Source: a virus. Taken from it: a stretch of 40,326 bases of DNA. The DNA lies in the IMG/VR virus record IMGVR_UViG_3300037422_000319, positions 1 to 40,326 of that record. One strand, written 5' to 3'. Each line of letters starts with the position of its first letter. Position 1 is the stretch's first letter. The notes under the pieces were generated by a model. That model saw nothing but the letters and a program-made list of their open reading frames with translations. It made no database searches and was not told the origin of the DNA. Below, piece after piece: positions 562-40,326 of the stretch. A program made the position numbers and the translations under genes.

Positions 562-1002
562 TTAATTAAAAATATTGAGTTTAAATACCAATACCTTTAA
601 CTCCCCAGAATACGAGTACACAACCCATAATGAATTGCTTGCGTCATTAACCCAATTTGGATTACTTACACGGTTAAGTGTGCCCAAAGTGTGCCCGCAG
701 CCCGCTCCATCGTCATAAATGCGTACAGTATCCCCGTCAACTTTCTTTCCATAATACTGGCCGTCAATTTGAGTGCATGCCGAATTTATTATAACTTTTC
801 GGTCTGGGTTACTGGCGAAATATTGATCAAGAGCTGCCTTAAGAGCAGCCGCTTGCGTAATACTAGCCTGTAACGCGTCCTGCTTTTTCTTAGCAAGTTT
901 GAGGCTAATTAAAATTGAGCTATTGAAATAATAGCCAATTAAGCCCAAAACGGTAACGGCGGCCATGACTTCCAATAGCGTAAACCCTTTAATATTTCTC
1001 AT
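562..1002 (-). CDS. Type IV prepilin / T2SS pseudopilin-like protein (class III signal peptide)
   Basis: N-terminus MRNIKG-FTLLEVMAAVTVLGLIGYY: short basic leader, Gly(-1), Phe(+1), Glu(+5), hydrophobic helix. Two Cys in the C-terminal half (SACTQ...GAGCGH). ATGA start/stop overlap with the upstream gene. Confidence 0.8.
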   Translation of the reverse strand: MRNIKGFTLLEVMAAVTVLGLIGYYFNSSILISLKLAKKKQDALQASITQAAALKAALDQYFASNPDRKVIINSACTQIDGQYYGKKVDGDTVRIYDDGAGCGHTLGTLNRVSNPNWVNDASNSLWVVYSYSGELKVLVFKLNIFN

Positions 1003-2608: not shown

Positions 2609-3379
2609 TTAACGCACTTGAGTATAGTTAACTGCCAGGTCCCAGAGCCTCTGATTGACTGCTATTTGCCTGTCAATGCTTTTAATAGCTCTAAGCTTAC
2701 GCATACCGCCGATAGAATCAGTGTTCACGTAAACCTTGCCCTTAAGAATTCGTTCCTGAACTCGGTTATACAATGTCCAGACATTTGGAACATTATCAGC
2801 GGCTCTATGATTCTCGTTAGTTAACTGATTGATATTATATTGGTTGACTTGAATGTCCAAATCATGCAATACAGTAGCCGCATAGTGCCACGCAATTGCA
2901 TCGTCGGCCGTGGTATTTTGCATAGACTCAATTTGATTAGAAACCATAGGCGCTTTGGCCGTTATAGCTCTTAGAGCAGCTGCGACTTTGCCGTCAGTAT
3001 AGCCGACATGTCGAACGCTATAAGACTGCGCAGTACCTTTGCTTACAACTAATCCGTTTGAACATACAATGCGATATAGCCCTAAGAGGAATTGAAAACT
3101 CGACATACCATTATGCGAATTCTTTAATAATATCCTAAGATTAGTATCGTTTGATACGCTCTTTAACTCGGTATGCTCGAATTCAATTAGATGCTGCGTA
3201 AAGTTGGGGTTGGTCGTTCGCGAGCGCTTTGCAGCTGCCTTAACAATGGACCACCCCTCGTTCTGCAATACGTTTATAACACGCATTGTAGGGATGAAGG
3301 CATAGCGATTTGAGAGTCCTTCTTCGGGAGCCTCTGCCAACGCTGCTAATGGCAATTCAACGGCATTTGAGTTATTCAT
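2609..3379 (-). CDS. DUF932/DUF945-family protein (phage/plasmid-like protein)
   Basis: Motifs FIPT...HLIEFEH...LRILLKNSHNGMSSFQFLLGLYRIVCSNGLVV are characteristic of DUF932 (NSHDG...G.fR.vC.NGlv). Confidence 0.75.
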   Translation of the reverse strand: MNNSNAVELPLAALAEAPEEGLSNRYAFIPTMRVINVLQNEGWSIVKAAAKRSRTTNPNFTQHLIEFEHTELKSVSNDTNLRILLKNSHNGMSSFQFLLGLYRIVCSNGLVVSKGTAQSYSVRHVGYTDGKVAAALRAITAKAPMVSNQIESMQNTTADDAIAWHYAATVLHDLDIQVNQYNINQLTNENHRAADNVPNVWTLYNRVQERILKGKVYVNTDSIGGMRKLRAIKSIDRQIAVNQRLWDLAVNYTQVR

Positions 3380-4591: not shown

Positions 4592-4882
4592 ATGAAGCAA
4601 GTCTCCACAACCGAAATCGAGAAGCGGTCCAAAGATCTCGAAGAATCCTTTAATTCTAAAAAAGCTGAGCATGAGAGTATTAGAAAGCAAATTGAGCAGG
4701 CCAGCCAGCGTCAGCAGCAACTTTACCAGGAATTGGTAAGTATTCAGGGCGCTTGGAATGCTCTTAGGAGCCTTCTGCCAGAGAAGCCAGCCACTCCTGT
4801 TGATAAAGTACCAGCAAAGTTGAAGGCTGTTAAAGCTTCAAAGGACGCTATAAGTGCTCCTAAGACAGCTCAATCAGAATGA
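4592..4882 (+). CDS. Hypothetical coiled-coil protein (96 aa); sits where a small terminase subunit might be, but is not recognisable as one
   Basis: Track ORF, first gene of the late operon. Charged heptad-like sequence. Confidence 0.55.
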   Translation: MKQVSTTEIEKRSKDLEESFNSKKAEHESIRKQIEQASQRQQQLYQELVSIQGAWNALRSLLPEKPATPVDKVPAKLKAVKASKDAISAPKTAQSE

Positions 4883-5303
4883 CTTCGGGCCAATCTTTAA
4901 ACTTTGGTTCTCGGAAATTTATCGCGGCGCGGTAAGAAAACTCTATCGCCGAGATCAGTTTTTCCTAAAGACTTTCAATGACTTATCGCAGGTCTTTAGT
5001 ACCGAGCATCGATGTTTTGTTGGTGCCGAGGAGAATGGCAAGATTGTTGCTGCAGCTCTTGGTGTAGGCAGTCCCCTAGATGCCAGGCTATTCCAGGGCG
5101 TCTTTCTCTGGGTAGATTCCAGCCGTCGAAATCAAGGGCATGGTGAGGCCCTAGCGAATGTCCTCTATTGCTGGGCAAAAGAGCATGGCTACTCCAGATT
5201 CGCCGTAGAGGCCCCTTCTAAGAATATCCCCTTAAAGCGAATTTTGCAAAAAATAGGCTTACATAGTACCAGAACGATTTGGGTTAAGGTAGAGAGTGAC
5301 TAA
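4854..5303 (+). CDS. GNAT-family N-acetyltransferase
   Basis: Acetyl-CoA motif A: VFLWVDSSRRNQGHGEALANVLYCWAKEHG (R/Q-x-x-G-x-G/A), followed by a beta-strand/helix pattern typical of GNAT. GTG start; overlaps both neighbours. Confidence 0.7.
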   Translation: MLLRQLNQNDFGPIFKLWFSEIYRGAVRKLYRRDQFFLKTFNDLSQVFSTEHRCFVGAEENGKIVAAALGVGSPLDARLFQGVFLWVDSSRRNQGHGEALANVLYCWAKEHGYSRFAVEAPSKNIPLKRILQKIGLHSTRTIWVKVESD

Positions 5304-8779: not shown

Positions 8780-9550
8780 ATGTCTAAAGAACAAGCTTCA
8801 CAGACCAAAACGGCTTCTGAAGCTAAGAAGGATGAGACCCACTCAGGCTCTGCCCCTCAAGACATACAGGCTCAATTAGATGAGCTAAAGCGTGGTTTTT
8901 CCCGGCTAGGCAATAGGGAACAAGCATTAATCGAACGCGAGGCTGCCTTAGACTCTGTGCTTAAAGAGCATAAAGAGCTGAAAACAAAGGTAGAAAGAGC
9001 TGAGCTAATTGAGAAGATGCTCATTGACAATCCTTACGAAGCCTATAAAATCGCAGGCGGAAATCCCACTCAAATCCACTCAAAAGTTGCTTCGGGCGTC
9101 GCTGAGGACGATCCGGCTCAGGTTAAGTTGAAAAGTCTTGAACAGACTATTTCAAAATTAACTAATACAGTCGAACAGTTAACTCAGAAAGAGCTTAAAG
9201 AGCAACAGGCTAAAGCACAGCAGACGTTTATTAGTCAAGTGGAACAGATAACTAAGAGTTATCCAATGGTTAGCGATCTAGATGGAAGTGTCGAAATCGT
9301 TAAGCAGGTTCTTCAGAGCGCTAAATCTGAAGGCAAAGAACTTTCTGTTGAAGATGCTGTAAAGCAGGTAAACGAGGAAGTTAAAAGTAGAGTAGCCAAA
9401 TTGGCTTCTCATTTGCCTCCCGATCAGCGACCTACAGAGCCAAAAGATGAAAAACCTTCTGGCCCACTTTCTATTAAGAATGCAAAAGAAAGGGCTATGG
9501 CACAAGCTAGGAGCTTGGCTGAAAAGCGGAAGGCAGATAAAAAAGGTTAA
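8780..9550 (+). CDS. Scaffolding protein (by position and composition)
   Basis: Highly charged, E/K/Q-rich coiled-coil 256-aa ORF directly upstream of the capsid gene. AGGAGA lies 8 nt before the ATG. Confidence 0.6.
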   Translation: MSKEQASQTKTASEAKKDETHSGSAPQDIQAQLDELKRGFSRLGNREQALIEREAALDSVLKEHKELKTKVERAELIEKMLIDNPYEAYKIAGGNPTQIHSKVASGVAEDDPAQVKLKSLEQTISKLTNTVEQLTQKELKEQQAKAQQTFISQVEQITKSYPMVSDLDGSVEIVKQVLQSAKSEGKELSVEDAVKQVNEEVKSRVAKLASHLPPDQRPTEPKDEKPSGPLSIKNAKERAMAQARSLAEKRKADKKG

Positions 9551-27792: not shown

Positions 27793-27987
27793 TTACTTCC
27801 TCTTATTCTTTTGTTTTGATTTTTTGGCTCCGTGTTTTGGTCTTCTCCCCGCATTCTCATCTTGATTTGGGGGACATAAAGAACAACTTAACCATAAACG
27901 GCTAATCTTATTTTCTACATCTTCGTAAGACTTGCCAGCTTGAATGGCCAATCTTTTAAGCATGCTTCTAGATTTATTTTTTGCCAT
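27793..27987 (-). CDS. Small basic protein (64 aa from MAKNKSRS)
   Basis: Track ORF 27793..28074 trimmed to ATG 27987, overlapping the lipoprotein stop by 14 nt. Confidence 0.5.
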   Translation of the reverse strand: MAKNKSRSMLKRLAIQAGKSYEDVENKISRLWLSCSLCPPNQDENAGRRPKHGAKKSKQKNKRK

Positions 27988-28312
27988 GGCCTTTTCCTTT
28001 ACATTTCTTAGTATGTTTATGCTGTTTCTTGCAGCCCTCGGCAGAATCAGAATCAGAATCACTATCTGAGTCATTTTTAAGCTTATCTATACATGAATTG
28101 TATTTTTTAGCTAATTCCATTAAGTCCACTTGACATTGCCCTATATCGGAGGCTCCTTTTGACGGTTCGCTTGAAGGACACCCCATTGGAGTGAACGGTG
28201 CTCGCGTTTCACCGACGACGCGGTCATCATCTGCACAACTAATTGCCAGGCCTAGTGCAATAAAAAGTAGGCCTGCCAGATAGTACCACTGATAATTATT
28301 TTTCATAACCAT
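27974..28312 (-). CDS. Putative lipoprotein with a (DS)n repeat and a basic Cys/His/Lys tail
   Basis: Signal YYLAGLLFIALGLAISC (lipobox-like LAISC), DSDSDSDSDS, and C-terminal CKKQHKHTKKCKGKGHGKK. Confidence 0.6.
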   Translation of the reverse strand: MVMKNNYQWYYLAGLLFIALGLAISCADDDRVVGETRAPFTPMGCPSSEPSKGASDIGQCQVDLMELAKKYNSCIDKLKNDSDSDSDSDSAEGCKKQHKHTKKCKGKGHGKK

Positions 28313-28807: not shown

Positions 28808-29082
28808 TTGGAATCCTCCTGAGTCTCTGAATATCGTTTTCTCATCTCAGCATATTTCTCTTGTAACTTAAAGGCCTTTACCTTTTCCTCACTAGTTTTC
28901 ATCTGCTTAGCAATTGACTCGAGTTCCTTATCGGCTCTGCTTTTCATTATATCTAATTGTAATTTTGACAGTTTACGCGATTTGTCTTTATTAGCTAAAA
29001 CTAATACCCCAATCACTATTGATGCAAATAAAAGCAGCCATTGCGTTAGGGTTAATCGGAGGCTATCTATAAACTTAAACAT
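28804..29082 (-). CDS. N-terminally anchored coiled-coil membrane protein (i-spanin-like topology)
   Basis: LTQWLLLFASIVIGVLVLA TM segment, then a K/E-rich helix. ATGA-type overlap with the next gene. Confidence 0.5.
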   Translation of the reverse strand: MFKFIDSLRLTLTQWLLLFASIVIGVLVLANKDKSRKLSKLQLDIMKSRADKELESIAKQMKTSEEKVKAFKLQEKYAEMRKRYSETQEDSK

Positions 29083-29329
29083 TTTTTAATTCCCTATTCC
29101 ATCGAGTGGCCCATTCTACTAAATCAATACCTCTAGCCAAATCTCCTGTTTGCTGATCTGCGATAATCTTAACTTCTCTTACCATCTGAGTCATAATTTT
29201 TAACTTTTCAGATTCAGAAATTCCATTACAAGGAGTAACGCAACTTTTGATAGAACGGCTTATTGGGGAATTAGGACAAATATTATAACAAGGTTGTGAT
29301 CCACAAATAGTACAATAATAATCTCTCAT
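29075..29329 (-). CDS. Cys-rich small protein (84 aa)
   Basis: N-terminal YCTICGSQPCYNICPNSPISRSIKSCVTPC. GGAGGG lies 6 nt upstream of the ATG. Confidence 0.55.
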   Translation of the reverse strand: MRDYYCTICGSQPCYNICPNSPISRSIKSCVTPCNGISESEKLKIMTQMVREVKIIADQQTGDLARGIDLVEWATRWNRELKNV

Positions 29330-29347
29330 GTGCGCCCTCCGCAGGAG

Positions 29348-29515
29348 TTAAACATCCCAGTTATCCTCACTTAAACAATGAATGCAGTATAAAAAATCCC
29401 CATCATCTAACTTATCGCCACAATCTACGCAATATTTTTGGTCACAGGATTCGCAGAAGAGTTCCCCCTCACTAGTAGTAATTATTTCATCTCCACAATT
29501 GCAATACTTACGCAT
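29348..29515 (-). CDS. Zinc-ribbon mini-protein (55 aa), not in the ORF track
   Basis: TAATG overlap with the metallophosphoesterase stop. Translation: MRKYCNCGDEIITTSEGELFCESCDQKYCVDCGDKLDDGDFLYCIHCLSEDNWDV (four Cys pairs). Confidence 0.6.
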   Translation of the reverse strand: MRKYCNCGDEIITTSEGELFCESCDQKYCVDCGDKLDDGDFLYCIHCLSEDNWDV

Positions 29516-30210
29516 TACAGTTTCCCCGTCCAGCGTCCCCTTCGATTTAATTTCATAGGGATAAAAGTAGGAACTCCATTATTGATTACGCCAACTCCTA
29601 GAATTGGCTTATCCTTTAGAAGTTTACCGTAATTAAAAGCATATGCGTGGCGGTCAATAAGACACCCTACATTGAACCCATATAACAGGTACTCTGCATT
29701 AGCCCAGTACTGAATGCCAGCCCAAGAGTGGAAGTGACCAAATACGGTGCTCTTCATATTCTTAAGGGGCAGCTGGAAGGAGGCCATTTTTCCCCCGCCT
29801 GTAATAGCATCGCCGTGCTCATAGCGAACCCCGTCAATGTCCCAATTCTCTGCCCACTGCCAGCCCTTTGGGGCCTTTAAAAATTCTCTATAATCCCTGA
29901 GATAGGCCTTAGGAATGCCGTGTTTATAGGCCTTTCTAAAAATGCGGGACGTGTGATTAGACTCACAAAGCTTCATGTCTGGAAAAGCTTTATACCAATG
30001 TTTTAACTTTGCGAGAGAAGCGAGCAACTCATCGCCTGCCGACATACCATCCGGGTCATGGTCCCAATCCCCAAGCGCATGGTGGTCAATCTCGTCCCCC
30101 ACATTAACCACTACGTGGGGCTTTACTTTAGCTGCTACGGTTTTGACAAACTCTAGAGCATCCCGGTGCTCAAACGGAATCTGTAAGTCTGGTATTACAA
30201 GCACTCTCAT
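29515..30210 (-). CDS. Calcineurin-like metallophosphoesterase
   Basis: Motifs IPDLQIPFEH (D-x-H type), GDEID (GDxxD), ESNH (GNH), GHFH (GHxH). Confidence 0.8.
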   Translation of the reverse strand: MRVLVIPDLQIPFEHRDALEFVKTVAAKVKPHVVVNVGDEIDHHALGDWDHDPDGMSAGDELLASLAKLKHWYKAFPDMKLCESNHTSRIFRKAYKHGIPKAYLRDYREFLKAPKGWQWAENWDIDGVRYEHGDAITGGGKMASFQLPLKNMKSTVFGHFHSWAGIQYWANAEYLLYGFNVGCLIDRHAYAFNYGKLLKDKPILGVGVINNGVPTFIPMKLNRRGRWTGKL

Positions 30211-30416
30211 CGCTGTTCCCCGGGTCCCTTAACTAAATAGGGGAGACGTCTGATTACTGGGACTTCAATCCCCCTTCTGGTACATTCCTCTTGTATTAAG
30301 AGAAGTACAAGGATAGAGACTTCTTTTTCAGGCCCACTCATATGCCTGTTCATTATATTAGCCAAAGTGTATAAATGTTTAGACTCTATCCTAGAGTTAC
30401 TCAGCCTGACTTTCAA
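30207..30416 (-). CDS. Hypothetical protein (69 aa)
   Basis: Track ORF; overlapping start and stop with neighbours. Confidence 0.5.
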   Translation of the reverse strand: MKVRLSNSRIESKHLYTLANIMNRHMSGPEKEVSILVLLLIQEECTRRGIEVPVIRRLPYLVKGPGEQR

Positions 30417-30759
30417 ATCGGATATTTAAAAAATCCATTCGTTCCGATTTTCTTCCGCCACTAGATATATTTTCAGAACGAGTGCCTGCAACATACCCAG
30501 AAGCCTGCATGTCAACCACAAACCTTGCTACAACGGCTCGGTCAATATGAGTAACGTTAACTTCAATCTGATTAACTCCAGTATCAATAGCCTGAAGAAC
30601 TAGTTTTGTAATAGTTCTTCTAAAAGCCTGCTCGGCTCGTTTGGAGGCTTCTTCTGCTAGAAGAATCTCTGGCTCTTTCTTGGGCTCGGCGGCCTCGGCG
30701 GTCGCATTCGCTTCTGCTACCATGTCCTCAATCGGGCGTTCAATTGCTCTTTTAGTCAT
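30397..30759 (-). CDS. Hypothetical protein (120 aa)
   Basis: Track ORF in the operon. Confidence 0.55.
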   Translation of the reverse strand: MTKRAIERPIEDMVAEANATAEAAEPKKEPEILLAEEASKRAEQAFRRTITKLVLQAIDTGVNQIEVNVTHIDRAVVARFVVDMQASGYVAGTRSENISSGGRKSERMDFLNIRFESQAE

Positions 30760-30771
30760 CGGTCTCTCCTA

Positions 30772-31326
30772 TTAAGCTGCGCGGTCAAATTCTGGCGGCG
30801 CAATAAAAAGTTCGAAAATACTTCTCACTTCTGAAGCTATATCAAGTCTGGAACGAAGTAGCGATACAAAACTTGCAACTGCCCCGTCATCCTGCCCCTC
30901 TACCTCTAAGAAGAGCCTCCGATCAGAATCACCCTCTACTTTATAAAAGGCACATTCCAATTTAAAGCCTTCATAGTTAAGCTTATACAACATATAAGTC
31001 TTACTAATTTCTCCGAGAGGGTCCCCAAGAACAGACCTAAAAAATCCCTTAGGGTATTCCACATCTGTTATAAACTCATGCTCGAGACGGTCAATATTGT
31101 TGCCCTTATCCTTTGTCTTTACTGTAACTAAGGTTTCTCTTTGCCCCTCTGTACGCCTAACTCTAAGAAATTGGGCCTCTCCATAAGATCGAAAATAAGT
31201 ATCCGTATCCATGTATAAAGACGTGTCTGTAGTAATAACATCAATAGATGGGATACCCTCAATCGCTACCCTAAGATTCTCTAGAGCTGAAAATAAGCTA
31301 TCCTGGCCTCTAACTACAAACTTCAT
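30772..31326 (-). CDS. CYTH-like (triphosphate tunnel metalloenzyme / class IV adenylate cyclase fold) protein, divergent
   Basis: FLRVRRTEGQRETLVTVKTKDKGNNIDRLEHEFITDV and RRLFLEVEG resemble CYTH strands (lRiR...lT.K....R.E.E and fvEiE). The N-terminal ExExK is replaced by KFVVR. Confidence 0.4.
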   Translation of the reverse strand: MKFVVRGQDSLFSALENLRVAIEGIPSIDVITTDTSLYMDTDTYFRSYGEAQFLRVRRTEGQRETLVTVKTKDKGNNIDRLEHEFITDVEYPKGFFRSVLGDPLGEISKTYMLYKLNYEGFKLECAFYKVEGDSDRRLFLEVEGQDDGAVASFVSLLRSRLDIASEVRSIFELFIAPPEFDRAA

Positions 31327-31766
31327 TTGTTCCTCCCAGATACTCCATTAGGATCAATAGCCCCAATTGGTATTAGAAAAGCCTGCGGTGCTTCTCCAGG
31401 ATCTGCTATATCCTGTGTGGAGGCTTTTTCTAATTCTCGTAACTTTAATTCTAACTGAGCTAAAACATTCCAGGCTTCGTGGGCTTGGTGAAGAAGGCCT
31501 GACTGCGGGTCATACTCTTCTCCTCGGTGACGGCTATTTTGATGGCGTCCTTGAGCATCAGCGTAACGAGATTGGCCATTTGGGACTTGGAGCCAGCCGC
31601 TATCGCTATACTTAATCGAGCCCATGGTGCCAACTTTAACGACTTCTTGAAAGGCCCTAGCAAAATCTTTAAGTACCAAGTTGAAGCGTAGTTTGCCTGC
31701 ATCTAACTTAGCCCCTGGGGTGTGGGCATCATAGCCTAGGGGGTCTTTTTCAGAATTTCTTTCCAT
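31323..31766 (-). CDS. DUF5664 / dATP-dGTP diphosphohydrolase N-terminal-domain-like protein
   Basis: KLDAGKLRFNLV...VVKVGTMGSIKY...RYADAQGRH...EYDPQSGLLHQAHEAWNVLAQLEL matches the K.D.GK...Ga.KY...A..RH...D.eSG..H.a...N.l pattern. Start trimmed to ATG 31766 (GAGGA upstream). Confidence 0.65.
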   Translation of the reverse strand: MERNSEKDPLGYDAHTPGAKLDAGKLRFNLVLKDFARAFQEVVKVGTMGSIKYSDSGWLQVPNGQSRYADAQGRHQNSRHRGEEYDPQSGLLHQAHEAWNVLAQLELKLRELEKASTQDIADPGEAPQAFLIPIGAIDPNGVSGRNK

Positions 31767-32079
31767 GGCGAATTCCTCGTGTTTTATTGTATTCAAGTTT
31801 TTTATCTATAATAGTTTCCAAGTCTAATTTTTTATACGCCGAGTAATCAAGTAAACGGATAACGGCATCTGCTATTTCAGAGCTTAGGCCTTTCAATTTT
31901 CCTGTAACAGGGTCTGCCCAAGTCTCTTCTTCGCCTTTACGAAGGCACTCAACCGCTTCAGCTAACTCAGTTACAACAAGCATGAGAGCCTCTGTATCAG
32001 TTTTCTTGAAACCTTCTTCGTACCAACCGGCCTCAACTGCTAGTTTATGGCATTTATCTTGTAATTCGTTTAATCTCAT
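31750..32079 (-). CDS. MazG-like nucleoside triphosphate pyrophosphohydrolase
   Basis: ALMLVVTELAEAVECLRKG ... LSSEIADAVIRLLDYSAYKKLDLETIIDKKLEYNKTR shows the all-alpha NTP-PPase E-x2-E ... E-x2-D signature. Confidence 0.75.
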   Translation of the reverse strand: MRLNELQDKCHKLAVEAGWYEEGFKKTDTEALMLVVTELAEAVECLRKGEEETWADPVTGKLKGLSSEIADAVIRLLDYSAYKKLDLETIIDKKLEYNKTRGIRHGKKF

Positions 32080-32552
32080 TTAATAACCTTTAAGAACAGT
32101 ATGCCACGATTGCGGTACATAGGCTCACAATCTCCGGCATAGTCATCATCGATTGCTACAAATTTTTCATTTGGATGAGCTTCCATAAGTTCTTTAATTT
32201 TTTCAGATTTATACAAATGAGGTCCTCTCCAATCATTGTCCTCACGCATAATAACTGGGGCTTTAGGGAAGCAGTACTCTTCCAGCCAAGCTTCTGTTTC
32301 TTTTCTTTGACTCTCAGATCGTCCAGTTAAGTAATAAATAACATGGGGCTCTACGTCTTCAATGCCAATAAGTAGGTGACGAATTTCATCAATAGGCTCA
32401 TCCATATGTAATACATCTGGGTTATGAGCTTTATCTAACCACTGCTGAAAAGCCTTACGATCTTTTCTATCAGGAATGGCCCCAAACTTAGCGAATCGCT
32501 TCGTAACATCGGCACAAGTATTGTCTATGTCTACTATATAAATCACTTCCAA
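32076..32552 (-). CDS. HAD-superfamily phosphatase (nucleotidase / polynucleotide 3-prime-phosphatase-like)
   Basis: Motif I IVDIDNT (DxDxT), motif II YYLTGRS, motif III/IV K...VAIDDDY. Confidence 0.75.
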   Translation of the reverse strand: MEVIYIVDIDNTCADVTKRFAKFGAIPDRKDRKAFQQWLDKAHNPDVLHMDEPIDEIRHLLIGIEDVEPHVIYYLTGRSESQRKETEAWLEEYCFPKAPVIMREDNDWRGPHLYKSEKIKELMEAHPNEKFVAIDDDYAGDCEPMYRNRGILFLKVIK

Positions 32553-32725
32553 ACTACTCCAGAACTTTTCTCTATGATATACTTAACCCCAAAACGATTC
32601 TCAATCTCTTTCATAAATTTTAAAACTTTACTATTGGGTATTTGAGTATGAACAAATACTGATAAAGCTTCCCACATAAATTTGTAATTAGCGTCAACTA
32701 CTTCCTTAAAGATTGGCTGTGACAT
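32543..32725 (-). CDS. Hypothetical protein (60 aa)
   Basis: Track ORF; overlaps both neighbours by 10-20 nt. Confidence 0.5.
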   Translation of the reverse strand: MSQPIFKEVVDANYKFMWEALSVFVHTQIPNSKVLKFMKEIENRFGVKYIIEKSSGVVWK

Positions 32726-33173
32726 AGTAAAGTCCCATCCCTATTGCGGCTAATTCATCCTCTGAATCAACCATCTTAATCCACGGCTTAAGCTTACCAC
32801 GTTTGCCCTTCCAGTCAACCTCTTTCTGCCAAGAGGTTACCGAGATAGTAGGGCTAACGCGTTTAACTCCCGCCGAATATAGAGCAGAACTTATTGAGCC
32901 AACAGCCCAGTGACAGTGAATGCTCGTCGCGGTCATCAACCGCTCAATAAAAGCCTCCTCAACTAAATATCCAAGATTAGACAATAACTGATAATATCGT
33001 ATAGATATAATTCTGATTCGGCCCAAAGCGGATACTAATCGATCATCCCCTTTAAGTTTGTCTTCTTCTTTAGTTAGCTGAACTGCTATAGTACCAGACT
33101 CAACATATTCAGTATCATTAAATATTGCCCAGCCAGTAGAGCGGCCCGCAGGGTCTATAAAGATCCTAACCAT
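32706..33173 (-). CDS. RuvC-like Holliday junction resolvase
   Basis: IFIDPAGRSTGWAIF (first catalytic Asp), EEAFIERL (Glu), DSEDELAAIGMGLYY (terminal acidic pair), in RuvC-fold order. Confidence 0.7.
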   Translation of the reverse strand: MVRIFIDPAGRSTGWAIFNDTEYVESGTIAVQLTKEEDKLKGDDRLVSALGRIRIISIRYYQLLSNLGYLVEEAFIERLMTATSIHCHWAVGSISSALYSAGVKRVSPTISVTSWQKEVDWKGKRGKLKPWIKMVDSEDELAAIGMGLYYVTANL

Positions 33174-33975
33174 AAATGTCCCTAACTATTTTATCAATCT
33201 CAGACTGAGGCTTTGGAGTAGGGTAAAGTTTATTTGACTCGGATAACCAGAAAGAGGCTACTCCTGCATCGTAGCCCCTGCGATGCAGGGCGTAGGCTAG
33301 CTTTACCAGTGTTGGGTGGCGGTCGCCTTCCGAGCGAGGCGTTGTTAGCTGCCGTATATATAGGTCATCAAAAATGCTTCTGGTATTTTCCATGTTAGGT
33401 CCAGCCATAAATGCATCCTGTGCAGCAGTTAATCGCTGCTCGGATTCGGCGATTTCTTCGGGCTCCAGACTTGGGATCGCGATTCCTGTTGATGCGCTAG
33501 ACAGCAACTCTTTCCGCTTTCCCGTTTCCTCGTGCCTATCTCCTGGTCGTCTAAATAAGTGCAAGTGTGCGTAGATGGAATCGTCCGCATCCGGGAAGTG
33601 TTTTCGTTTCCATACTTTGTCGAGCCATGGCAATGTATGCGAGGGCTCTGTGTTACGGAGCAACCCAACATGAAGGCCGCGACGACCAGAAGTATAACAA
33701 AGATAATCATAGCCACATTTCCTAATTTCTTCTAACGCTTTCCGCCCCGAGAGCTGGTCGTCGAAGTCCAGCCAGAGTCTTTCTGACCAGACACAACCCT
33801 TAAACCCCTTCGTACCTTCGACCGAGAGGAGGTCCGCTTGACTTTTCGTGACGTAATATAAAGAACTAAACCCGTGCCCAGGAAGCTCGCTAATCCGATA
33901 AAACCTAGGTTTAGCAGAGCTGAAGACAAAGGGCTTCCATAAAGCATAAACATATTCATTCTCCTTATTATTCAT
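33166..33975 (-). CDS. Archaeo-eukaryotic primase (AEP) type primase-polymerase with a PriCT-like C-terminal domain
   Basis: LWLDFDD (DxD), TSGRRGLHV (sGxGxH), HLHLFRRPG, and C-terminal GDRHPTLVKLAYALHRRGY...EIDKIVRDIY. Confidence 0.75.
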   Translation of the reverse strand: MNNKENEYVYALWKPFVFSSAKPRFYRISELPGHGFSSLYYVTKSQADLLSVEGTKGFKGCVWSERLWLDFDDQLSGRKALEEIRKCGYDYLCYTSGRRGLHVGLLRNTEPSHTLPWLDKVWKRKHFPDADDSIYAHLHLFRRPGDRHEETGKRKELLSSASTGIAIPSLEPEEIAESEQRLTAAQDAFMAGPNMENTRSIFDDLYIRQLTTPRSEGDRHPTLVKLAYALHRRGYDAGVASFWLSESNKLYPTPKPQSEIDKIVRDIYG

Positions 33976-33992
33976 AGTAATTATCGAACATC

Positions 33993-34622
33993 TTATTTGC
34001 CCTTGCCGGAGGCACTAAGTGCTCTTTTTAGTTCAGTGTAAGGAACCACATAAGTTACAGGTATAGGGTATCCCGTTCTGACAACTAATCCTATCACGCG
34101 TCCCGTTTCCTCGTCAACTACTGGACTACCGGAGTCGCCTGGAATAGCAACTGAGTGCAATGTGAAAAATCCACCCAGAGCTTCTTGTCCAAAGGAGCAA
34201 GGCATCTTATGCTGAACGGCAGAGCCGCCTCCATACCCCGCATGCCAGCAATTGGAATCAAATTCGGGGGCTTCTGTTGCGAGATCGAATGGGATGAGGT
34301 TGCGGGTATCGCCCTCTAGAATGGCCCAGTCGCGGTGATCTAATTCTTCCCCTTGATTAATTATCTTAAAATTAGTTGAGTACCCATCGGTAAATACCCC
34401 AAGAGAGAGCGCATTCCGTTCCTGCATACCCATAACACAATGCTTGGCAGTAGCAATTAAATTCTTTTTAATAACCCACGCGGTACAACTGTAGTTAAGA
34501 GAAAGGATATTCGGGACATTAGAAATCTCTTCAAAGCGGGTATAGTTAACTAGATGAACAGCTCCCGCTACAGCCAGAGTAGAGCTTATAAGAATGGATA
34601 AGACCAGATGCTTACTAATCAT
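33993..34622 (-). CDS. Secreted or anchored trypsin-like (S1/chymotrypsin fold) serine protease
   Basis: Signal-like MISKHLVLSILISSTLAVAGA. Catalytic TAKHC (His), HRDWAIL (Asp), GDSGSPV (Ser). ATG 34622 overlaps the polymerase stop (ATGATTAG); the track ORF extension to 34772 is rejected. Confidence 0.8.
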   Translation of the reverse strand: MISKHLVLSILISSTLAVAGAVHLVNYTRFEEISNVPNILSLNYSCTAWVIKKNLIATAKHCVMGMQERNALSLGVFTDGYSTNFKIINQGEELDHRDWAILEGDTRNLIPFDLATEAPEFDSNCWHAGYGGGSAVQHKMPCSFGQEALGGFFTLHSVAIPGDSGSPVVDEETGRVIGLVVRTGYPIPVTYVVPYTELKRALSASGKGK

Positions 34623-36561
34623 TTTTGATATTCGCGAGCGTCGTAACTTTTTTAATATCGCATTTAACTTCGACTTCAAGCTCGAGAGTTTTGTTAACAG
34701 TTTTGAGGGCTTCTTCGTAGATTTCTTTCGCATCGTCATACCTTCCTGGCGGATAAAAAAATGTAGTAGCATCGTGTGTATCCGGTAACCACGGCCTCAG
34801 TATAACATCGCGCTCCTTAGAAAGTCTACAAATTTCCATGACCCACATTACCAGTACGTCATGCCCGCCGCTCTGAATGAATCTATTCAATAAGTCTTTT
34901 TTAAATCTATCCGGTATAAATATAACTCTGCCTGCTGCATTAACTACATAACCTTGTTTATCATAAAGCTTCTTAAGTTTCTGCCCAAATTCTTCTACCT
35001 TTTTAAACTTACGCCAGTATGCTCGCACATGCCTTAAAGCTTCTTGAGGGGTAGTGGGATAACCATTAAACGTAAGTTGTCTAGCGATAGTATATTGAGT
35101 GCCTGTATATTGCAGGGCTAGGTGAATGATCTTACATATGTCTCGTAAAGACTTAAACTTTTTCTTGGCTTCATCAATGTCTTTAGATTGAGGATTGTAT
35201 TCATGTTGTAATTCAATATGATCTGGGAATATTTCTAGAGCCAGGTCCAGATAAATATCTCCTAGCCCATCTCTAAATACTTTAAGTAGAGTTTCATCAT
35301 CGCTGTAGTGGGCAGTTAGGCAAGGCTCTACTGCTTTTAAGTCTGCATGTATGCCTCCTTCATACTCATCAGGAACTGTGAAAGCTTGCATTATTAGCTC
35401 TTCTTTAAAAGGAGGGTTAAGTGTATTAGGACTAAAGCAAGCCAGCCTGCCAGATACAGTGCCGCAAATATTAAGAGGGGGATGTATGCTACCTTGCTCA
35501 TCAATACTTTCGAGGTACATTTTACAATATTTTGCGTTATCTAATTCTTTAATAATTCGAGCGAATAGCTGAGCGCCAGGATGCTGGTAGCGCCGTATTA
35601 CATCAGCCGCCGTTGAGGGTGCGCCCTTTTCAGTCACCTCTGTTATAGGAAGCCCCCATTTATCATATAGGAGCACCGCTCTCTGCTGGGTACTGCCGGG
35701 ATTAAAATCTCTATGATACCTATATATATTCAAATTCCGATTTACTCTACCCTTTTCAGTCTTTAGCATGGCGGAACCTTTTTTACTTTTACTGTAGGAC
35801 AATTCTGACTCAAGAGCCTCTATATCTGGAGCGTACTGTGTTCTAAGTTCGGTCTTAGTAGTAGCGGAGGCTTGTTCATAGTGCGATTTGGCTTGTAGGA
35901 GGGCCTTGGAGGAAAGAGGGATGCCCTGCTCCTCATAGCGTCTAAGCATGTCGTCATAGGCCATTCTATTTTGAATATAGGGTAAATAAGAGTACTTCTC
36001 GAAAAATGGCAGTAGTTTTTTATAGCCCAGGTAGGTGGAGTGTGCATCATAGCACGCGTATTCCGCTATTAAAGGCAGGTCGGCCATCCATATGTCTTTT
36101 CCTGGCTCGCCGCCTCGTGCCTTAATCTGCGCGTCGAGAATGGTCTTCTTGGACTCGGGCCAGCCCAGAAGGTCGGTTTGTAGTTTACCTAATGAAAACC
36201 CATGCATTAAGTCTTCGCGGTCGCTAAGCTGCCAGCCCAAACGAGTATCAAACTCCCAATTGGAGTTAATGCCAAACGTGTAATCGATCCAGTTTTTATC
36301 AAAGGCTCTATTGTGGCCTACCAACTTCCACTTAGAGAGGGGGGAAGCCATCGCTGACTTCCCTATAGAGGAATCTACTAGAGGAACATAAATCGCGTCA
36401 AAGCCTACTAGCTCATTGGAAGAAAAGGAAAATCCTATGAGGTTAGTGGAGGGGGTTCTAGGATACTTGCCCTTGGTTTCTATGTCGCACGCTATCGGTG
36501 TTCGTACATGGGCAGTTATCTCAGTTAGTTCCGCTAAATCTGAGACAACTTTCCATTTCAT
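34615..36561 (-). CDS. Family A DNA polymerase with 3-prime to 5-prime exonuclease domain
   Basis: Exo I ACDIET, Exo II GHNRAFDKNW, Exo III YACYDAHSTY. Pol motif A HADLKAVEP, motif B RDICKIIHLALQYTG, motif C SGGHDVL. Confidence 0.9.
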   Translation of the reverse strand: MKWKVVSDLAELTEITAHVRTPIACDIETKGKYPRTPSTNLIGFSFSSNELVGFDAIYVPLVDSSIGKSAMASPLSKWKLVGHNRAFDKNWIDYTFGINSNWEFDTRLGWQLSDREDLMHGFSLGKLQTDLLGWPESKKTILDAQIKARGGEPGKDIWMADLPLIAEYACYDAHSTYLGYKKLLPFFEKYSYLPYIQNRMAYDDMLRRYEEQGIPLSSKALLQAKSHYEQASATTKTELRTQYAPDIEALESELSYSKSKKGSAMLKTEKGRVNRNLNIYRYHRDFNPGSTQQRAVLLYDKWGLPITEVTEKGAPSTAADVIRRYQHPGAQLFARIIKELDNAKYCKMYLESIDEQGSIHPPLNICGTVSGRLACFSPNTLNPPFKEELIMQAFTVPDEYEGGIHADLKAVEPCLTAHYSDDETLLKVFRDGLGDIYLDLALEIFPDHIELQHEYNPQSKDIDEAKKKFKSLRDICKIIHLALQYTGTQYTIARQLTFNGYPTTPQEALRHVRAYWRKFKKVEEFGQKLKKLYDKQGYVVNAAGRVIFIPDRFKKDLLNRFIQSGGHDVLVMWVMEICRLSKERDVILRPWLPDTHDATTFFYPPGRYDDAKEIYEEALKTVNKTLELEVEVKCDIKKVTTLANIKND

Positions 36562-36672
36562 AAATCAAAGCCCCTAAAGGTTTTAGGAGAGCCAGCTTCC
36601 GTTTTACACCCGATGAGGCGTCATAGATGTACAGCTCGGATAAACACTGTACAATGACAAGCTCTTTACAAG

Positions 36673-38865: not shown

Positions 38866-39369
38866 TCACTCCCCAATCTCATCTGCCAAGCCAAGTTTAA
38901 CTGTTTCTTCTGCAGTTAAATACCAATCTTTATTCAGTTTAGCTCTTAGTTGTTTAAACGTAAAGCTAGGGATCTTTTTTCTAATTTGCTCTAAGTATAT
39001 CATATCAAGGCGGCCCTCTTCTTTAGCTGCATACCTAAGTTGCGATATTTGCTTTACTATTCCGTTATCGTCAACGGCTCCAATACTTCCGTGTAACATT
39101 ATCTTAGCATTCGGCATCACAATTCGTCTGTCAAATGCCTGAAGAATCAAAGAAGCCATAGACTGAGCTTCGCCGTATACAACTCCAGTAGTCCGTCCCT
39201 TCTGAGTTTTTATCGCATCATAGATAGCCATTCCTGCAGCAACCTCGCCTCCTTGTGAGTTTATGACTACATAGATGGGCTTCGATTTAGGCAATTCATA
39301 AAGTCGCCTAATAAATACTCGAGCTAAGCGATCATCTATATCACGGTCAAGATATAATATGTTTCTCAT
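38866..39369 (-). CDS. ClpP-like (S14 family) serine protease
   Basis: IYVVINSQGGEVAAGMAIYDAI...VYGEAQSMASLILQA...PNAKIMLHGS...KDWYLTAEETVKLGLADEI aligns with ClpP INSPGG / G.AaSM / imiHqP / rD.y...EA..yGliD, including Ser-His-Asp. Confidence 0.85.
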   Translation of the reverse strand: MRNILYLDRDIDDRLARVFIRRLYELPKSKPIYVVINSQGGEVAAGMAIYDAIKTQKGRTTGVVYGEAQSMASLILQAFDRRIVMPNAKIMLHGSIGAVDDNGIVKQISQLRYAAKEEGRLDMIYLEQIRKKIPSFTFKQLRAKLNKDWYLTAEETVKLGLADEIGE

Positions 39370-39733
39370 AGAACTCCCTTAGTATATCTTGTTTAAGAGG
39401 CACGTTATCCCTAAATTCTTTTTCAATTCCGTATTTTATGGCTAGCAATAATCCATATAAGTCTGCTTTTTCCTCAATATATTCAGCATAAAATGGAAGA
39501 GATTCGTAGCCTAGCGGGTCAATTATCTCAATTTCATTGTCTATATAATGCCCTAGCTCATGAAGCAAAACTAAGCATTTGTTTTTATAACTTAAAAGAG
39601 AACTAATTAAAATTTCCCGAAAAGGCTTAAAAACTCCTGCCATTCCATGCCAGTGTAAGAAGGCGTTTTCACATATACATATCTTTAGGCTCCAACTTAA
39701 TCGCAATTTCCAATATAAAAAAATCCATCTCAT
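39347..39733 (-). CDS. ImmA/IrrE-like zinc metalloprotease (HEXXH)
   Basis: LVLLHELGHYIDNE ... EEKADLYGLLLAIKYGI (HExxH plus a downstream E-x-x-A-D/N helix), as in the ImmA/IrrE family. Confidence 0.6.
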   Translation of the reverse strand: MRWIFLYWKLRLSWSLKICICENAFLHWHGMAGVFKPFREILISSLLSYKNKCLVLLHELGHYIDNEIEIIDPLGYESLPFYAEYIEEKADLYGLLLAIKYGIEKEFRDNVPLKQDILREFYEKHIIS

Positions 39734-40190: not shown

Positions 40191-40326
40191 CTATTTGGCA
40201 TAGTACTCTCTAACCATTTTCAAAAGCATCTTGACGGCAACAGACCAGACAGCAGCCCGGGCAGCAGACCAGGCAGCAGACTCGGCAGCAAACTCGGCAG
40301 AAGACTCGGCAGCAGCCCGGGCAGCA
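40191..40326 (-). CDS. 3-prime end of the Ala-repeat protein gene (duplicate of the 1-127 copy plus the last 3 codons including the stop)
   Basis: Frame carried from 1..465 across the circular junction gives ...REYYAK-TAG, with the stop at 40191-40193. Confidence 0.7.
   Translation of the reverse strand, partial: AARAAAESSAEFAAESAAWSAARAAVWSVAVKMLLKMVREYYAK
40200..40326. repeat. Second copy of the 127-nt terminal repeat
   Basis: Identical to 1-127. Confidence 0.95.

Follow-up and report, generated by a model that had tools for sequence, protein, structure and literature searches.

Nucleotide hydrolases encoded by phages determine the building blocks available to the viral polymerase and are the basis of Z-genome and other non-canonical DNA. 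PurZ and PurZ0 phages cleanse their nucleotide pools with DUF5664 and MazG-type enzymes (PMC12884076). DUF5664 is mentioned only rarely in the literature and its activity was demonstrated only in 2026: the stand-alone DUF5664-1 of Arthrobacter phage Wayne converts dATP, dUTP and dGTP to the deoxynucleoside monophosphates (dNMPs) (Nucleic Acids Res 2026, PMC12884076). Here we analysed a block of four hydrolase-type genes at 30772-32552 on the minus strand of an uncultured phage, the IMG/VR virus record IMGVR_UViG_3300037422_000319, of which the whole stretch of 40,326 nt is hereafter called the window. In the order of transcription the block encodes a HAD phosphatase, a MazG-like pyrophosphohydrolase, a DUF5664 protein and a CYTH-like protein of the triphosphate tunnel metalloenzyme (TTM) type. 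With about even confidence, we interpret it as an accreted nucleotide-hydrolase cassette of the replication module that acts on the (deoxy)nucleotide pool and not in a DNA-modification pathway. All four proteins come from established superfamilies, and systems of phage hydrolases acting on the nucleotide pool are already known. New are the recurrent DUF5664-HAD unit in phages that show no base-substitution partner gene, an uncharacterised family of phage TTMs whose genes lie in nucleotide-metabolism neighbourhoods, and one clade of these TTMs in which the catalytic motif is being lost although the gene is kept.

The original prediction had placed four such genes in this interval, and all four open reading frames (ORFs) were found there: HAD (32076..32552), MazG-like (31750..32079), DUF5664 (31323..31766) and CYTH-like (30772..31326), with successive overlaps of 4, 17 and 4 nt. 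Its family assignments were upheld by profile hidden Markov model (HMM) searches and, for the HAD and CYTH proteins, also by structure searches. The block comes directly downstream of the genes for DNA polymerase and for primase-like and RuvC-like proteins, stop codons overlapping with start codons, and this position behind polymerase, primase-like and resolvase genes fits a supply of clean precursors to replication. The gene order recurs in L018, a near-identical Logan assembly of 40,187 bp from a separate sequencing run (encoded proteins 98.5-100% identical over the 12.5 kb compared), and, without the MazG-like gene, in the diverged relative L004, a sister phage with a HAD 78% identical to that of the window. 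Because of this recurrence, the clustering of the genes is not attributed to chance.

The DUF5664 gene (147 amino acids from ATG 31766, with a Shine-Dalgarno-like GAGGA upstream; a longer TTG ORF starts at 31796) encodes a stand-alone DUF5664 / dGTP_diPhyd_N protein. It matched PF18909 with 86.8 bits against a cut-off of 27 (E = 1e-24), phrog_5033 at 1.4e-40 and phrog_801, 'dATP/dGTP pyrophosphohydrolase', at 1.8e-28. We predict that it is a pyrophosphohydrolase of deoxynucleoside triphosphates (dNTPs), yielding dNMP and pyrophosphate (PPi). With Wayne DUF5664-1 it has in common the PF18909 family, the single-domain architecture, a position among phage nucleotide and replication genes, and the same predicted reaction. 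However, Wayne is a PurZ0 (Z-base) phage with DutZ and DmtZ, whereas the window genome is without PurZ0, Dut or NDT. Moreover, the DUF5664 gene described here is paired with HAD phosphatase, MazG-like and TTM genes, and its substrate range is a prediction. Homologs were found by tblastn in 796 reference phage records, mostly from phages of Vibrio, Pseudomonas, Klebsiella and Xanthomonas, and the gene was solitary in the replication module of all three phages inspected (Curvibacter phage P26059B, Pseudomonas phage tf and Vibrio phage 115E34-1). Among the 80 closest IMG/VR DUF5664 loci, local HMMs detected no HAD, MazG, CYTH or metallophosphoesterase gene of the present subfamilies within 5 kb, in agreement with the local density having been called unusual beforehand. 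The cluster is thus unusual for a DUF5664 gene, and DUF5664 alone says nothing about modified DNA.

Homologs of DUF5664 (e.g. NC_048055 gp21 and NC_017971 tf_41) are widely labelled 'endolysin; inhibits RNA polymerase' via phrog_5033/2252. Given the PF18909 assignment and the published pyrophosphohydrolase activity, this label looks like a propagated misannotation.

The partner with which DUF5664 is repeatedly found is the HAD phosphatase. On every contig that encodes a HAD with 36% or more identity to that of the window, a DUF5664 gene lies no more than four genes away. The pair is adjacent or up to four genes apart in Pantoea phage LIMEzero and in L016, L017, L024, L025 and L004, with HAD preceding DUF5664 in the window, L018 and L004, and following it in L016, L017, L024 and L025. 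In LIMEzero, ORF30 (HAD_PNKP, 2e-18) overlaps ORF31 (PF18909, 9e-32). Furthermore, gp34 of Salinibacter phage M8CRM-1 is a single 304-amino-acid fusion with PF18909 at residues 11-120 and a HAD with a weak NT5C signature at approximately 130-262, and the window DUF5664 and HAD match non-overlapping halves of phrog_37590. Both coupled pairs, like the present one, have their place in the replication module or downstream of the DNA polymerase. In contrast to them, the window encodes two separate proteins with the MazG-like gene wedged between, and the Salinibacter HAD is more distant and NT5C-like. Judged by gene order, DUF5664 and HAD form the conserved core of the block, adjacent or nearly adjacent in six other phage lineages, and the fusion together with the order-independent linkage is of the kind that classically indicates two enzymes of one pathway.

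In such a pathway, of which we infer the substrates, the order of reactions and the biological purpose, DUF5664 would cleave selected dNTPs to dNMP and PPi and the adjacent HAD would dephosphorylate the dNMP to the nucleoside. As the HAD would remove the last phosphate, disposal of unwanted dNTPs would be irreversible. In the absence of a Dut gene from the phage, plausible targets are dUTP or damaged dNTPs. The DUF5664-HAD unit, recurrent and sometimes fused in phages without a visible base-substitution partner gene, hence predicts an undescribed two-step disposal route from dNTP to nucleoside. Stepwise conversion of dNTP to dNMP and nucleoside had been offered earlier as a role for all four genes; linkage and fusion speak for it in the case of the DUF5664-HAD pair, while the patchy occurrence of the MazG and CYTH genes speaks against it for the block as a whole.

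A block of this kind could alternatively cleanse the pool for a modified base, as in Z-genome phages, with the replacement nucleotide supplied by an unrecognised enzyme or by the host. Bases 1-127 of the window recur exactly at 40200-40326, and this 127-nt direct repeat at both contig ends is an assembly overlap, therefore the window represents a complete, circularly closed (or circularly permuted) phage genome of 40,199 bp. Approximately 50 ORFs, essentially all of at least 100 amino acids plus many smaller ones, were scanned against Pfam, PHROGs and NCBIfam, the last of which added nothing. The scans revealed no PurZ/PurA, DatZ, dUTPase, NDT, thymidylate synthase or dCMP hydroxymethylase, and no glycosyltransferase or deazaguanine-pathway enzyme. 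Since the genome is complete, the earlier statement that no PurZ, thymidylate-synthase-like, hydroxymethylase or glycosyltransferase partner is encoded stands, as far as homology can be detected. DUF5664 and MazG-type enzymes do serve base substitution in PurZ/PurZ0 phages (PMC12884076), and several ORFs of the window genome are without annotation. Nevertheless, the complete genome yielded no homolog of a partner gene, and hundreds of isolated phages carry DUF5664, with no base-substitution partner showing in those inspected. In comparison with the MazZ/DatZ pool-cleansing set of PurZ phages, a PurZ, DatZ or DpoZ context is missing here. The avoidance of restriction sites also argues against this alternative: several 6-bp palindromes are avoided, for instance GAGCTC (0 observed, 9.2 expected) and GGATCC (0 observed, 4.5 expected), which hints weakly at DNA that is open to restriction and so not globally modified. 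Because DUF5664 is widespread, is solitary in the inspected phages and, in Wayne, also hydrolyses dUTP (PMC12884076), it is no marker of base substitution. We consider pool cleansing for a modified base, put forward in the original prediction, highly improbable, and nothing links the block to DNA hypermodification.

The HAD ORF encodes 158 amino acids from TTG 32552, but its true start is probably GTG 32546, which overlaps the upstream stop as GTGA and gives 156 amino acids. The protein matched Pfam Acid_phosphat_B (PF03767) with 36.2 bits against a cut-off of 27 and phrog_415 at 3.5e-22; HAD_PNKP and LNS2 matches were below threshold. Motif I reads DIDNT (D8-I-D10-N-T12), conforming to DxDxT, and is invariant in 7 homologs, as are T76 (motif II), K115 (motif III) and D136 (motif IV) among the homologs. 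The AlphaFold2 (AF2) model, with a predicted local distance difference test (pLDDT) value of 91, has a Rossmannoid HAD fold close to PNKP/AphA structures. Foldseek returned Pnkp1, the T4 Pnkp 3'-phosphatase (TMt 0.73) and AphA (entries 4xru at 7.8e-7, 5uj0 with TMt 0.73, and 1z5g), and among the structural neighbours are the nucleotidases AphA and cdN alongside Pnkp. We thus place the protein in the PNKP/AphA-like clade of HAD subfamily III, where a role as polynucleotide 3'-phosphatase may be considered. The DxDxT core and the small-cap Rossmannoid fold are common to it and to the T4 Pnkp 3'-phosphatase domain, Pnkp1 and AphA. Unlike T4 Pnkp, it is a stand-alone protein without a kinase domain, and its gene context points to mononucleotides and not to nucleic-acid ends.

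These matches bear on an unlikely alternative, in which the block is a nucleic-acid end-healing module that repairs damage caused by host nucleases: the HAD would act as a DNA or RNA 3'-phosphatase, the nearby metallophosphoesterase would trim ends or open 2',3'-cyclic phosphates, and the TTM would act on 5'-triphosphate ends. The top sequence and structure matches of the HAD are Pnkp1 and the T4 Pnkp 3'-phosphatase, its relatives are named 'polynucleotide kinase/3'-phosphatase' by PHROG and RefSeq, and distant homologs have an RNA ligase and a kinase nearby in Ruegeria phage RpAliso, and a tRNA nucleotidyltransferase nearby in ATSV. In addition, the TTM fold includes RNA triphosphatases. Scans of the complete genome, however, detected no P-loop kinase domain or ligase, the TTM is without the catalytic glutamates, and end healing has no use for a dNTP pyrophosphohydrolase such as DUF5664, to which the HAD is consistently coupled or fused. 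For the HAD substrate, the coupling to DUF5664 favours mononucleotides, whereas the closest homologs by sequence and structure favour 3'-phosphatases. A further HAD_PNKP homolog (30% identical) is encoded on L022, a 97-kb viral contig without DUF5664 there; approximately 4 kb downstream of it, at 9287-9508, we observed a gene for an Acb2/Tad1-hairpin protein resembling the anti-CBASS/anti-Thoeris sponges.

The MazG-like all-alpha NTP pyrophosphohydrolase (109 amino acids) had no Pfam match at E up to 0.1 and none in NCBIfam, yet it matched three PHROG 'pyrophosphatase' families (best phrog_3301 at 7e-25). The metal-binding signature ExxE...ExxD (E38/E41...E68/D71) is invariant in 26 homologs, one of which carries PF12643. 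A profile of these 26 sequences matched in the PDB 4qgp (1.4e-5), DCTPP1/RS21-C6 (2.9e-5) and cyanophage MazZ 7ody (1.4e-3), so that the protein seems nearest to the DCTPP1/RS21-C6 type. The Acinetobacter phage SH-Ab 15497 encodes a fused DUF5664-DUF550 dATP/dGTP pyrophosphohydrolase, in which DUF5664 is joined to a MazG-superfamily pyrophosphatase; in the window the two are separate neighbouring genes, and, in contrast to the fusion, the MazG-like protein does not match DUF550 (PF04447), its closest solved relatives being 4qgp and DCTPP1.

In L018 the MazG-like gene is present, whereas in L004 only 5 nt separate the end of the HAD from DUF5664 and no MazG gene intervenes; it is also absent from the DUF5664-HAD loci L016, L017, L024 and L025. 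As the sister phage L004 lacks it, the gene is a recent, lineage-specific insertion between HAD and DUF5664. Its homologs stand alone elsewhere, beside DNA polymerase or Cpn10 genes in other phages, and in L014/L015 they sit among cellular-type metabolic and translation genes. In L012/L013 (5353-6957) the polymerase gene adjoining the homolog is a UDG-DNA_pol_A_exo1 fusion split from the DNA_pol_A domain, which suggests uracil avoidance as a theme around this MazG subfamily. With no MazG gene in L004 or at any other DUF5664-HAD locus, the four genes do not form a pathway inherited as a unit, and the block is best described, from gene content, as a patchwork round the DUF5664-HAD pair and not as a conserved four-step pathway. 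The MazG-like protein would be a second house-cleaning pyrophosphatase, independently acquired and presumably of different base specificity.

The patchwork could also mean that the genes have no joint function at all and are independent 'moron'-type house-cleaning genes, each marginally useful, that have gathered at a permissive site of the replication module. The variable presence of MazG among close relatives, its solitary homologs elsewhere, the restriction of the CYTH-DUF5664 linkage to one clade and the erosion of TTM motifs in two ways (window and L004) are in line with this. On the other hand, DUF5664 and HAD are linked in at least 6 diverged lineages, in both orders and as a fusion, the genes of the block are translationally coupled, and the CYTH gene has a dN/dS of roughly 0.11-0.14, with dS saturated. 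We therefore regard the absence of a joint function as rather unlikely. If the block served only house-cleaning, its value would lie in better annotation of relatives that are now labelled 'endolysin; inhibits RNA polymerase', 'polynucleotide kinase' or 'adenylate cyclase class IV'.

The CYTH / triphosphate-tunnel-fold protein (184 amino acids) scored 22.6 bits with Pfam CYTH, 0.6 bit under the cut-off of 23.2. A tblastn search of the phage records gave no match and a phmmer search of the PDB gave only noise. While a word-indexed search found 3 homologs, an exhaustive search of representatives found 149, of which 60 were aligned; 33 of these match Pfam CYTH at E up to 1e-3, and the profile of the 60 relatives matches the CYTH structures 2dc4 and 1yem at 1e-9. 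The AF2 model (pLDDT 91) shows a beta-barrel tunnel fold of eight strands, for which Foldseek found 2dc4, SaTTM of Sulfolobus (7nsf, TMq 0.67), 1yem, AtTTM3 and YgiF, along with a BFVD phage entry named 'CYTH domain containing protein' (TM 0.81). The Joint Genome Institute (JGI) label, class IV adenylate cyclase (CyaB), was rejected, since the protein has no HF and no ExExK, and beta8 reads E-V-E and not ExA; AC-IV enzymes need HFxxxxExExK and ExA, while thiamine triphosphatases (ThTPases) carry an aromatic W/YxRxR (PMC8233210). Beyond annotation tables, we found no description of phage CYTH proteins in the literature.

The CYTH gene follows DUF5664 only in a small clade comprising the window, L018, L004 and L019. 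Distant phage CYTH genes adjoin DUF3310 (L005, L006), NDT-like (L006) and dUTPase (L010) genes, and in L007 a P-loop kinase is encoded approximately 1 kb upstream. The family is therefore placed in nucleotide metabolism. As DUF3310 adjoins CYTH in L005 and L006, homology of DUF3310 with DUF5664 would have extended the CYTH-DUF5664 link; it was tested with hhalign and rejected (probability <1%).

In the work on SaTTM, metal and substrate are bound by ExExK, and in hydrolytic TTMs metals 1 and 2 are bound by the beta8 ExE (PMC8233210). The N-terminal (R)ExExK is kept in 57 of the 60 aligned relatives, but both of its glutamates are gone from the window protein, whose N-terminus reads M-KFVVRG versus MQNREIEMKFVVRG in the 73%-identical P0002; the latter, on L019, starts MQNREIEMKFVV. 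The in-frame codons before the window ATG at 31326 read stop-W-S-I-W-E-E-Q, the second glutamate now being Q, and upstream of this ATG no in-frame ATG, GTG or TTG start is present. The ATG is preceded at 5 nt by a GGGAGG Shine-Dalgarno sequence and overlaps the DUF5664 stop as ATGA. An assembly artefact as the cause of the N-terminal truncation was rejected in view of this strong Shine-Dalgarno sequence, the ATGA overlap and the 100% identical protein of L018. Retained are D42/Y44 (DxY), F53/R55/R57 (FxRxR), K70, K109 and E141/E143 (beta8 ExE); the basic tunnel residues K2, R55, R57, K70 and K109 are all kept, and the aromatic F53 occupies the 'W/Y' stacking position of ThTPases. The L004 ortholog P0003 (L004 880-1425), still an intact 181-amino-acid ORF, reads NNELK and has lost the first E of ExExK, K70, D73, R80 and E143. 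The catalytic residues thus seem to have eroded independently in the two sister lineages, window and L004. The ORF is intact in all four contigs and pairwise dN/dS is about 0.11-0.14, which is indicative only because dS is saturated, and the gene appears to be under purifying selection.

The window protein is accordingly classed as TTM-type and not as an adenylate cyclase, yet it lacks a defining catalytic feature of the family. It has the eight-stranded tunnel fold, DxY, RxR, the conserved lysines and the beta8 ExE in common with SaTTM, NeuTTM and AtTTM3. The ExExK-less CYTH proteins AtTTM1/2 (PMC8233210) are without both motifs, whereas the window TTM is without the beta1 glutamates but keeps the beta8 ExE. 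It also differs from known TTMs in being phage-encoded, in its translational coupling to DUF5664 and in F53 at the ThTPase-type stacking position. As both ExExK glutamates are lost, a canonical triphosphatase role is doubtful, and a binding role or non-canonical chemistry seems more likely than efficient triphosphate hydrolysis. In the cassette that we propose, this protein, which joined DUF5664 only in the small clade, would probably bind a triphosphate ligand or use a non-canonical mechanism, and together with the metallophosphoesterase it would be accessory.

Degradation of alarmones or defence signals had been listed among the alternatives in the original prediction. In this scenario, which we find quite unlikely, one or more of the enzymes would destroy or sequester cyclic oligonucleotides, ADP-ribose (ADPR) derivatives, (p)ppGpp or Ap4A, with the TTM as a sponge for triphosphate ligands. 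The TTM keeps the basic tunnel residues, DxY and the aromatic stacking residue without the beta1 glutamates, a pattern expected of a binder, and beyond this pattern no positive evidence for the scenario emerged. In its favour, alarmones and dinucleoside polyphosphates can be substrates of MazG-like and calcineurin-like hydrolases. Against it, none of the four families is known for anti-CBASS, anti-Thoeris, anti-Pycsar or anti-type III enzymes, PADLOC and anti-defence libraries being outside our searches; the genes lie deep in the replication operon and not in an early or accessory region; and the distant CYTH relatives adjoin dUTPase, NDT and kinase genes, not defence-related ones. A still narrower proposal is that the TTM is a pseudoenzyme sequestering a triphosphorylated nucleotide, either an immune or stress signal or a substrate or product of DUF5664. 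The DUF5664-HAD-TTM trio would then be a previously unrecognised phage counter-defence or pool-control device and not simple house-cleaning; we consider this very unlikely.

Several points weigh against the accreted pool-acting cassette that we favour. All 80 close DUF5664 loci are without a HAD of this subfamily, a count obtained with narrow local HMMs that would miss other HAD subfamilies. The best sequence and structure matches of the HAD are polynucleotide 3'-phosphatase domains, and its distant homologs adjoin RNA ligase and kinase genes. The enzyme activities of the block are predicted from sequence, and the substrates of the Wayne enzyme may not apply, since depleting dATP or dGTP makes little sense with canonical DNA. 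Moreover, the role of the TTM is left essentially unexplained, and several small unannotated ORFs could hide a novel modification enzyme.

Downstream of the block, a conserved hypothetical protein of 120 amino acids (30397..30759, minus strand) is encoded between the CYTH and metallophosphoesterase genes; it is syntenic, with a 46% identical ortholog at the same position in L004 and a 100% identical one in L018, and had no family match in Pfam, PHROG or NCBIfam. It is followed by a doubtful ORF of 69 amino acids with a TTG start (30207..30416, minus strand), which is absent from L004, not called as a gene in L018 and without a family match in Pfam or PHROG. The calcineurin-like metallophosphoesterase (231 amino acids; 29515..30210, minus strand) lies two ORFs downstream of the block, as had been noted beforehand, and matched phrog_221 at 7.8e-58. 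Its score with Pfam Metallophos (19.9 bits) is below the cut-off of 21.5, its L004 ortholog is 86% identical, and a sequence search against the PDB gave nothing useful. Promoter- and terminator-like sites at 29000-34000 showed no excess over shuffled sequence, and none was located inside the block. Farther downstream of the block, an HNH endonuclease gene is present.

A nucleotide search with 29000-36600 against 50,697 phage records gave no match, hence the phage has no sequenced close relative among these records, and the window DNA polymerase is only about 25% identical to that of any reference phage. Structural and lysis genes (large terminase, portal, major head protein, endolysin and internal virion protein) occupy the plus strand at approximately 4.8-25.5 kb. 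The minus strand from approximately 40.1 down to 26 kb forms one long early/replication operon that encodes ClpP-like and metallo-proteases, an SSB-like protein, a family A DNA polymerase, a trypsin-like protease, a PriCT primase-like protein and a RuvC-like resolvase. The ClpP/head-maturation-protease-like (phrog_94, 4.7e-33) and metalloprotease-like (phrog_87) genes, at 38866-39369 and 39347-39733 (minus strand), open this operon at a distance from the structural module. The gene for the trypsin-like serine protease (Trypsin_2, 6.5e-12; 33993-34772, minus strand), whose N-terminal region is basic and hydrophobic, lies between those for the DNA polymerase and the primase-like protein and overlaps the 3' end of the polymerase ORF.

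At 562-1002 (minus strand), a 146-amino-acid ORF carries a prokaryotic N-terminal methylation motif of the type IV pilin/pseudopilin kind (PF07963, E = 1.5e-6). Such a pilin-like gene is odd for a small phage; similar N-terminal methylation-type motifs are listed for T4-like phages (PMC1524935). The adjoining minus-strand block encodes DUF932 (6e-30) and GP88 (3.8e-38) proteins at 2609-3379 and 1601-2236, respectively. A GNAT-type acetyltransferase-like ORF at 4854-5303 (plus strand; phrog_1249, 4.9e-11) is located directly upstream of the large terminase gene and overlaps it, at a spot where a small terminase would be expected. Finally, a small ORF at 27974-28312 (minus strand), of secreted or lipoprotein-like type, combines a (DS)5 repeat with a lysine-rich tail; it stands with the small membrane-protein ORFs of 28.3-29.1 kb in what is possibly a lysis/spanin-type region, where ORFs of the two strands overlap.

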